Source of the DNA: Polyangia bacterium
Lineage (GTDB): Bacteria; Myxococcota_A; Polyangia; Fen-1088
DNA length: 61,278 nucleotides
Direction: 5' to 3'
Assembly (NCBI GenBank): GCA_045802645.1
Contig: JBJMQQ010000052.1
Span: 1 to 61,278 of the forward strand
Part shown: positions 40,652 to 40,822 of the stretch, piece by piece
How positions within the stretch are numbered: position 1 is the stretch's first letter
How the letters are laid out: each line of letters starts with the position of its first letter
Translations under genes and position numbers: made by a program
Notes under the pieces: generated by a model
What the model was told of the DNA's origin: nothing
Database searches by the model: none
Seen by the model: only the letters and a program-made list of their open reading frames with translations

Positions 40652-40822
40652 ATGGAAAAGCCGAACCAGAACTCGAATCCGAATCAGAACGACTGCCGCT
40701 GCCAGAACGCCTCGTGCGGGTGCGCCGGTGCCCAGCCGCAGCCGTGCACCTGCGGCGAGCGCTGCGACTGCACGCCCACCTGCCAGTGTGGCGGTGGCTG
40801 CAACTGCCAGAGCGCGAAGTGA
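40652..40822 (+). CDS. Metallothionein-like peptide (56 aa, six CxC)
   Basis: GGAGA RBS; MEKPNQNSNPNQNDCRCQNASCGCAGAQPQPCTCGERCDCTPTCQCGGGCNCQSAK. Confidence 0.8.
   Translation: MEKPNQNSNPNQNDCRCQNASCGCAGAQPQPCTCGERCDCTPTCQCGGGCNCQSAK

Follow-up and report, generated by a model that had tools for sequence, protein, structure and literature searches.

A six-CxC peptide encoded beside a CorE-like sigma factor gene in Polyangia, a probable new metallothionein-like family of bacteria

Does a 56-codon open reading frame (ORF) in which 21% of the codons specify cysteine (Cys) encode a new kind of bacterial metallothionein? The frame lies at positions 40,652 to 40,822 of contig JBJMQQ010000052.1 of an uncultured soil myxobacterium, a Polyangia bacterium (GenBank assembly GCA_045802645.1), and the whole stretch of this contig that was analyzed, 61,278 nucleotides (positions 1 to 61,278, forward strand), is called the window below. 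Here, we report that the peptide probably founds a new bacterial metallothionein or metallothionein-like family under a CorE-like sigma factor of the extracytoplasmic function (ECF) type, a reading to which we give a probability of roughly 0.65; metal binding is predicted from sequence, and copper is the likeliest metal. The gene and its ribosome-binding site are as follows.

40652-40822, plus strand: peptide gene, 56 codons, metallothionein-like product with 12 Cys in six CxC pairs
40642-40645, plus strand: Shine-Dalgarno sequence GGAG, 6 bases upstream of the ATG, read from the sequence

The translation of 40652-40822 (+) holds 12 Cys among 56 residues (21%), every one of them in a Cys-x-Cys (CxC) pair, and the six CxC span 38 residues with spacers of 3 to 7 residues. 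His, Phe, Tyr, and Trp do not occur in it, and residues 1 to 14 include five Asn and two Gln. A sequence-only reading made earlier had described the frame in just these terms (56 residues, 12 Cys all in CxC, no His or aromatic residues, an Asn/Gln-rich N terminus), and the translation confirms that description.

Cys-rich frames can be deceptive in DNA of this composition (window, 69% G+C). The 5.9-Mb assembly contains 70,996 stop-to-stop ORFs of at least 40 residues, and in 10 of these, five or more CxC fall inside a span of 45 residues; the nine besides the peptide frame are off-frame Cys/Arg low-complexity or repeat reads or parts of large proteins. Because these nine occur in the same assembly, the CxC count by itself is no proof of a gene, and the frame might be no gene at all, only a chance opening in G+C-rich DNA or the antisense of another feature. 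Conservation decides the matter.

A word-indexed homologue search returned no matches, because no 5-residue words are shared, and an index-free profile search then found the family. Six-frame searching of 41 related genomes gave two clear homologues, both from the same genus, at 68% identity in genome G011 (E value, 2e-17) and 54% in G020 (3e-10); the remaining matches, all with E values of at least 0.002, were discarded. A profile of the three sequences matched 14 of 401 genomes of the class, 13 of which hold a full-length peptide, and one additional locus came from a metagenome-assembled genome. The genome total is 16 loci in 15 Polyangia genomes, all full length with six CxC in register, to which metagenome contigs added 9 loci (six CxC in 9/9). 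Two weak profile matches, L025 (G124) and L027 (a second site in G369), offered no ORF with four or more CxC and were dropped. Genome G395 has two copies of the peptide gene (L032 and L033).

Alignment of 26 family sequences shows 10 invariant and 3 almost invariant Cys set among variable spacer residues, and conservation runs along the whole length of the peptide. Indels seen among homologues keep the frame, and the ratio of nonsynonymous to synonymous substitution rates (dN/dS) was 0.17 to 0.72 in 11 of the 11 homologue pairs computed. G+C content at third codon positions is 0.877 in the peptide frame (0.49 and 0.65 in the other two plus-strand frames), the position of the Shine-Dalgarno sequence holds GGAG or GGGA in 14/16 genome loci (judged by eye), and the opposite strand has no competing gene. 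With six CxC conserved in register across loci and dN/dS below 1, the peptide gene is real and under purifying selection. Off-frame reads do yield CxC-rich ORFs, but 25 loci with invariant Cys, variable spacers, and in-frame indels, together with a conserved Shine-Dalgarno sequence, promoter, and terminator (below), already refute the view that this is no gene, as far as sequence goes.

The N terminus follows another course. The window copy has an insertion of six residues there relative to its relatives, a soil variant has 6 bases fewer at 40674, in frame, and a metagenome relative (L050) has a differing number of NQNP units; since its length differs between close relatives, we regard the N terminus as a variable appendage outside the core. 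The Asn/Gln stretch itself (window positions 40666-40692) behaves like a short coding repeat. At the other end, L020 (G150) and L022 (G257) carry C-terminal extensions of about 10 to 25 residues past the usual end, as though through loss of a stop codon.

Distribution of the family is narrow and patchy, given that only 2 of 401 genomes in a phylum-wide sample were positive (G000 and G081). Among 1.84 billion representative proteins, a HMMER profile gave 38 matches at E values of 1e-3 or lower, 36 of them small proteins of about 50 residues; the other two, P0017 and P0026, are very long repetitive proteins (31 to 32 stretches) and were taken as compositional. Ten family members were looked up, of which four are named “hypothetical protein” and six are nameless, and all are of metagenome origin. 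The exact window peptide is present in the ESM Atlas and absent from a 15-billion-protein collection. Gene callers, it had been proposed, would miss this gene; that holds for the 15-billion-protein collection, but the 36 small relatives had already been called, under no name or as hypothetical proteins. The lack of His, likewise, is true of the window peptide but not family-wide, with CHC found in G011, G020, and others.

Metallothioneins are proteins of low mass, rich in Cys, that form metal-thiolate clusters. The window peptide agrees with that class in its small size, its 21% Cys in CxC, and its lack of aromatic residues. It has no Pfam or NCBIfam match at E values of 1 or lower. When all 26 members were compared with Pfam, the sole match was to Metallothio_PEC (PF02068), in 2/26, with a best E value of 0.38 and below the gathering score; NCBIfam gave 0/26, the Metallothio_Pro profile (SmtA/BmtA) gave 0/26 at E values of 10 or lower, and SmtA likewise gave no Protein Data Bank (PDB) match at that threshold. 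Run against all PDB chains, the family profile had five matches (E values, 0.55 to 2.1), none significant, among them the snail Cd metallothionein 6qk5 (0.55) and wheat Ec chains (1.1 for 2l61, and 2.1). The nearest ESM Atlas clusters are nameless “hypothetical proteins” of 46 to 52 residues, and metallothionein clusters lie at 0.76 to 0.81, under the reliability line. AlphaFold2, run metal free on the 26-sequence alignment, predicted no confident fold (predicted local distance difference test score, 51.7), as may be expected of a peptide that folds around metal; the model proves nothing either way and neither supports nor opposes a metallothionein. By these comparisons, the peptide is metallothionein-like in make-up and appears to be a member of no defined family. 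The earlier suggestion of a possibly new bacterial metallothionein family thus stands as probable: the profile and translated searches that it called for recovered a conserved family of small homologues, and no defined family was matched in Pfam, NCBIfam, or the PDB.

What would switch such a gene on? The sigma factor gene diverging from it, and the elements flanking the peptide frame, are listed here.

39990-40565, minus strand: CorE-like ECF sigma factor gene, diverging from the peptide gene, with 11 bases between its start codon and the -35 element
40577-40583, plus strand: -35 element TGTAATG of an ECF-type promoter, at a conserved position upstream of the peptide gene
40598-40604, plus strand: -10 element GCGTCTT (CGTC core), 14 bases past the -35 element
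40612-40636, plus strand: hairpin of the 5′ untranslated region (UTR), 6-base loop AATGGA, beginning at about the expected transcription start
40829-40861, plus strand: terminator-like hairpin with a perfect stem of 14 bp and a 5-base loop, lacking a T run (-38.3 kcal/mol; z score, -3.5)

Domains Sigma70_r2 (5.6e-12) and Sigma70_r4_2 (5e-6) of the sigma factor score above the cut-off, and its best NCBIfam match, SigZ, falls under it. A CxC in the linker (C-G-C in the window) and a C-terminal tail of the form C-x2-C-x4-C-x2-C-x-C are both invariant in 11/11 aligned orthologues, and the window tail holds five Cys and one His. Neighbor scans showed no anti-sigma-like gene beside it, no dedicated search having been made. 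A linker CxC and a Cys-rich C-terminal domain are described as the two defining marks of CorE-like sigma factors, both essential for CorE2 (PMC4937300, PMC8999054), and these factors are reported to sense metal directly, without an anti-sigma factor (PMC4937300, PMC8999054, PMC3107203). By its domains, linker CxC, and Cys-rich tail, the neighboring sigma factor is classed as CorE-like.

Sigma and peptide genes travel together. A sigma orthologue lies within 1.5 kb of the peptide gene at 11/16 genome loci, one of these orthologues appearing broken (beside the second G395 copy, where the sigma seems split into two frames), and at 1.7 kb in G232 and 3.3 kb in G295; in G223 it is on a different contig, and the L011 contig stops just past the peptide gene. 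At 8/9 metagenome loci the sigma adjoins the peptide gene, and the ninth peptide begins 68 bases from a contig end. Within the genus, sigma orthologues of at least 73% identity occur solely in the 3 peptide-bearing genomes, and the other 22 reach 58% at most, a co-occurrence that is suggestive only, because kin are not independent. In G116 the peptide gene stands ahead of the sigma gene on the same strand.

In promoters of the ECF type, about 16 bases separate the -35 element from a -10 element with CGTC. TGTAATG precedes the peptide gene in 14/16 genome loci (G295 and G081 carry variants) and in 8/9 metagenome loci, the ninth being cut by a contig end. GCGTC(T)T follows it after 14 to 15 bases, and the CGTC core is found in 16/16 genome loci. 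A slightly relaxed motif occurred 14 times in 305 kb of family loci. Twelve of these sites stand immediately ahead of the peptide gene, and G295 accounts for the remaining two, one about 20 bases from the start of the sigma gene and one in front of a multicopper oxidase gene. In G357 the motif is found ahead of MbnP as well, which diverges from the sigma gene as the peptide gene does in the window, and ahead of a DJ-1/PfpI-led operon. A scan of the intergenic region for sigma-70 promoters found 0 sites. The motif is thus placed as a promoter, and we infer that the neighboring sigma factor uses it.

Across the window's 5.9-Mb assembly, the strict motif occurs twice (reversed control, 0) and the relaxed motif 13 times. 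The second strict site (L029; contig C121:14127-14153, minus strand) has no hairpin, Shine-Dalgarno sequence, or nearby start, and it was treated as probably a chance match because about one is expected assembly-wide by a rough estimate. The intergenic DNA around it is of low complexity, and a lipoprotein gene lies about 500 bases downstream. At two relatives the TAA stop codon of the sigma gene lies inside the TGTAATG of the next promoter, that of the multicopper oxidase gene in G295 (L038, 7125-7165) and that of the peptide gene in G357 (L018/L037).

The 5′-UTR hairpin is present in 14/16 genome loci. In a loop-anchored alignment (A5), 85.7% of cells pair, against 26 to 41% with slid partners, and 4/7 pairs change on both sides, a covariation score attained in 0/500 shuffles; the two innermost pairs are fixed by the anchoring and uninformative. 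Folded from the window alone, the hairpin is weak (-13.4 kcal/mol; z score, -1.5), and Rfam recognized no family in 40400-41000, giving just a chance microRNA match (E value, 0.9). Downstream, the terminator stem sequence is kept in the f1 loci, and the f15 loci have other hairpins with T runs instead. Two f15 loci, L021 (G116) and L022 (G257), lack the UTR hairpin and have their promoter very near the start codon. The peptide gene of the window is thus a compact unit of ECF-type promoter, covarying 5′ hairpin, GGAG, ORF, and terminator hairpin.

So tight a pairing with one sigma orthogroup raises another view of the peptide, as mainly a regulatory partner of the sigma factor, acting as metal donor or acceptor or as an anti-sigma-like modulator of its Cys-rich tail. 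Both proteins carry CxC, and CorE-like sigmas are described as having no anti-sigma factor (PMC3107203, PMC8999054). The peptide gene, however, is a presumed target of the sigma, with a promoter and terminator to itself and no co-translation, and it is also kept where the sigma gene is unlinked (G223) or no sigma orthologue was detected (G081). Twelve Cys, moreover, exceed the need of a regulatory contact. We hold a mainly regulatory role to be improbable.

Evidence of expression is slight. Twenty sequencing runs carry parts of the stretch (shares of 0.44 or lower), all of them soil or urban metagenomes. One soil metatranscriptome library yielded a single 197-nt contig (depth, 2.9; 95 to 99% alike) on 40623-40822, from within the UTR hairpin to the stop codon, which is the only contig over the 911 bases examined; none lies on the sigma gene, and uncovered parts in an RNA run are no evidence of silence. 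The same allele, with an N-terminal region 6 bases shorter and one extra A in the UTR, was also seen in a DNA run. The contig is a weak hint that the peptide gene is expressed.

If the peptide is a metallothionein, which metal would it bind? Gene context was scanned through 122 neighboring proteins at the 16 genome loci. A multicopper oxidase gene lies within 1.8 kb at 4/16 loci, in both families (G020, L011, G295, and G232), MbnP adjoins the G357 locus, and a CsoR-family repressor gene (PF02583, 3e-21) and a P-type ATPase gene directly follow a peptide gene in G395, where MarR is also encoded. The gene for PpoB2 (“copper chaperone”) lies at a distance of 3 kb in G011 and of 8 kb in the window (48769-49377). 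Because CorE of Myxococcus xanthus is reported to activate a multicopper oxidase gene (cuoB) and copper ATPases (PMC3107203, PMC10141476), and because the loci neighbor copper-related genes, copper is the most likely metal of the module.

Several observations weigh against a copper-responsive metallothionein under this sigma factor, and a first group of them would equally suit the same module with another metal, a Cd/Zn thionein or an As/Sb or Hg binder whose sigma acts like CorE2. CorE2, the paralogue of CorE, is described as responding to Cd and Zn and not to Cu, with a single tail Cys setting Cd versus Cu specificity (PMC4937300); with one Cys able to decide this, and with five Cys and a His in the window tail, sequence does not reveal the metal. 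The G395 locus with the CsoR-family gene also holds two ArsC-like (LMWPc) phosphatase genes, which could point to metalloids, and its P-type ATPase is without assigned specificity. In the window no copper gene is adjacent, the nearest being that for PpoB2, and tblastn with the G020 query found no multicopper oxidase orthologue in the window's assembly, which is 85% complete. Another metal is nonetheless unlikely: the genes that share the motif or neighbor the loci (multicopper oxidase, MbnP, CsoR family, PpoB2) are copper associated by family name, the motif precedes MbnP and one of the four multicopper oxidase genes, and the contexts scanned showed no gene of the CDF, CzcA, or ArsB type. A second group of points bears on control and on counts. 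Genome G081 (97% complete) has the peptide gene with a variant -35 element and no sigma orthologue at E values of 1e-30 or lower, and the ECF classification (PMC7826278, supplement) gives no conserved promoter or genomic context for ECF238. The transcript contig is a hint only, because RNA libraries may contain DNA, and the counts come from kindred genomes, which makes them look more independent than they are.

A further gene lies behind the sigma gene and brings its own question.

39092-39997, minus strand: gene for a DepH/GliT-type dithiol oxidase dependent on flavin adenine dinucleotide, 8-base overlap with the sigma stop (ATGATTGA)

Because the ATG of this gene overlaps the sigma stop codon by 8 bases, oxidase and sigma are probably translated together. 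The product looks thioredoxin-reductase-like at first (Pfam, NCBIfam); phmmer against the PDB gave 3fbs at 1.9e-86, DepH at 1.5e-73, and GliT at 2.3e-28, with canonical thioredoxin reductases at 1e-12 or weaker. It has a CPYC redox motif, and GSGANAVH replaces the NADP motif GGGDxAxE; a redox motif CP/LY/FC and loss of the GGGDxAxE motif are marks described for the DepH group (PMC4894451). On these sequence marks, the product of 39092-39997 is assigned to the DepH/GliT/HlmI dithiol oxidases. It is an accessory, being present at only 4/16 genome loci and 2/9 metagenome loci.

Enzymes of the DepH group form disulfides from two nearby thiols, and one coupled to the sigma gene might therefore take the peptide as substrate, oxidizing CxC to disulfides in a disulfide-rich product or a thiol redox buffer. 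The clear group membership of the oxidase favors this, but the gene is missing from most loci, and small molecules are the substrates of the group members described (PMC4894451, PMC11317636). Genes of the radical-SAM, lanthipeptide, YcaO, or export kinds do not occur in the scanned contexts, and conservation spanning the whole peptide leaves no leader/core split. Nor does the peptide look like the precursor of a ribosomally synthesized and post-translationally modified peptide, with no modifying-enzyme Pfam family (radical SAM, LanM, YcaO) among the 122 neighbors at 16 loci. We judge the peptide very unlikely to be an oxidase substrate of this kind. Quite doubtful, too, is a three-part, redox-gated copper circuit in which the sigma would sense copper and drive the thionein, and the oxidase would oxidize CxC dithiols of the thionein or of the sigma tail, releasing stored metal or resetting the switch. 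Such a circuit, if true, would give bacteria an equivalent of the thionein/thionin redox cycle; to our knowledge, the DepH-type enzyme class has been known so far only from disulfide natural products.

We thus return to the metallothionein reading, in which the parts could work as follows. The promoter motif, the hairpins, and the pairing with the sigma gene are conserved, and the motif precedes copper-related genes in relatives. The sigma factor, with its linker CxC and Cys-rich tail, would sense a thiophilic metal directly, most likely copper, and would take RNA polymerase to TGTAATG-N14-GCGTC upstream of the peptide gene. The product would be a short monocistronic mRNA made up of the 5′ hairpin, GGAG, 56 codons, and the terminator hairpin, and its translation would give a small cytoplasmic metal-thiolate peptide whose six CxC pairs bind surplus metal and so protect the cell. 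Less free metal would then turn the sigma off again, closing a presumed sense-and-sequester loop.

The remaining genes of the window are noted briefly. A Fic/DUF4172 gene (37983-39098, plus strand) overlaps the convergent oxidase gene by 7 bases at the 3′ ends and is the same neighbor in G011. Three genes at 41023-45321 separate the peptide gene from an RRM-protein gene (45845-46330), namely, those for a Gly/Thr-rich lipoprotein (weak GH79), a protein at 42.8-44.4 kb without a Pfam match, and a 269-residue ORF; in G011 the peptide and RRM-protein genes are adjacent, pointing to an insertion or deletion in otherwise conserved synteny. Farther on, 8 to 10 kb downstream, 48769-50389 (minus strand) encodes PpoB2 (5e-44) and DUF899 (thioredoxin-like, 6e-94), syntenic with G011.

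If true, a third bacterial metallothionein family, unrelated to SmtA/BmtA and MymT, would widen the known metal-buffering repertoire with a family confined to soil myxobacteria that has its own sensor, promoter, and mRNA architecture. For CorE-like sigma factors, TGTAATG-N14-GCGTC would be the first well-defined target promoter shared across species, and the sense-and-sequester module, being compact, would be easy to test or to reuse as a metal biosensor. A further lead is the association of a putatively metal-sensing sigma with a DepH-type dithiol oxidase. In the literature examined (bacterial metallothioneins, myxobacteria, and reviews of CorE, CorE2, and ECF sigma factors, with most subscription journals outside), no metallothionein under a CorE-like sigma is described, and no description was found of a metal-sensing sigma coupled to a DepH-type oxidase.

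How does the module compare with known systems? Plant type-1 metallothioneins have two blocks of three CxC each, split by a long Cys-free linker. The peptide, in contrast, is a single block of about 50 residues with spacers of 3 to 7, lacks that linker, and has no Pfam match. Its likeness to the CxC-rich metallothioneins of eukaryotes (plant type 1, Ec/PEC, snail Cd metallothionein) lies in high Cys, CxC, and strings resembling C-x-C-G-x-x-C-x-C. The resemblance to eukaryotic rather than bacterial metallothioneins put forward at first is therefore compositional only, there being no significant similarity, and it is most simply read as convergent composition.

In SmtA, His residues serve as ligands, and the zinc-finger-like fold includes aromatic residues. 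The Polyangia family does not conserve His ligands or aromatic residues, and the Metallothio_Pro profile matched none of its members; the likeness to SmtA/BmtA and SmtB is that of a bacterial metallothionein adjoining, and controlled by, its own metal sensor. The His ligands and zinc-finger-like fold of SmtA are also described in PMC7558416, and two reviews (PMC7387436, PMC7558416) cover just two bacterial metallothionein kinds, SmtA/BmtA and MymT.

Like CorE and CorE2 (ECF44, now within ECF238), the window sigma combines a linker CxC and a Cys-rich tail with sigma2 and sigma4.2 as its sole domains, but its tail has five Cys and a His where those of CorE and CorE2 are described with six Cys (PMC4937300), a comparison by described features. 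The promoter motif was derived from the family loci; a promoter logo for CorE has been published (PMC3107203, Fig. S3). For the oxidase, a parallel in setting is DnoP of Pseudomonas aeruginosa, which is encoded outside biosynthetic clusters, responds to zinc starvation by induction, and is reported to detoxify dithiol toxins that chelate zinc (PMC11317636). The window oxidase likewise lies outside a natural-product cluster in a metal-related regulatory setting, and it differs from DepH, GliT, HlmI, and DnoP in its probable translational coupling to a presumed metal-sensing sigma.

The functionally closest described system, by analogy, appears to be the RicR regulon. MymT of Mycobacterium tuberculosis is described as a small, originally unannotated, Cys-rich metallothionein that protects against copper, and it shares the regulon of one copper sensor, RicR, with a multicopper oxidase and with the gene for RicR itself (PMC10141476, PMC7558416). 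No relation to MymT was detected in the Pfam, NCBIfam, and PDB scans, the presence of a MymT model in Pfam or NCBIfam not being established. The Polyangia module would be run by an ECF sigma activator and not by a CsoR-family repressor, its peptide has six regular CxC, and it belongs to Myxococcota, versus Actinomycetota for RicR. The two are alike in the composition of the putative regulon of G295, in which a sensor, a multicopper oxidase, and a thionein-like peptide stand together.

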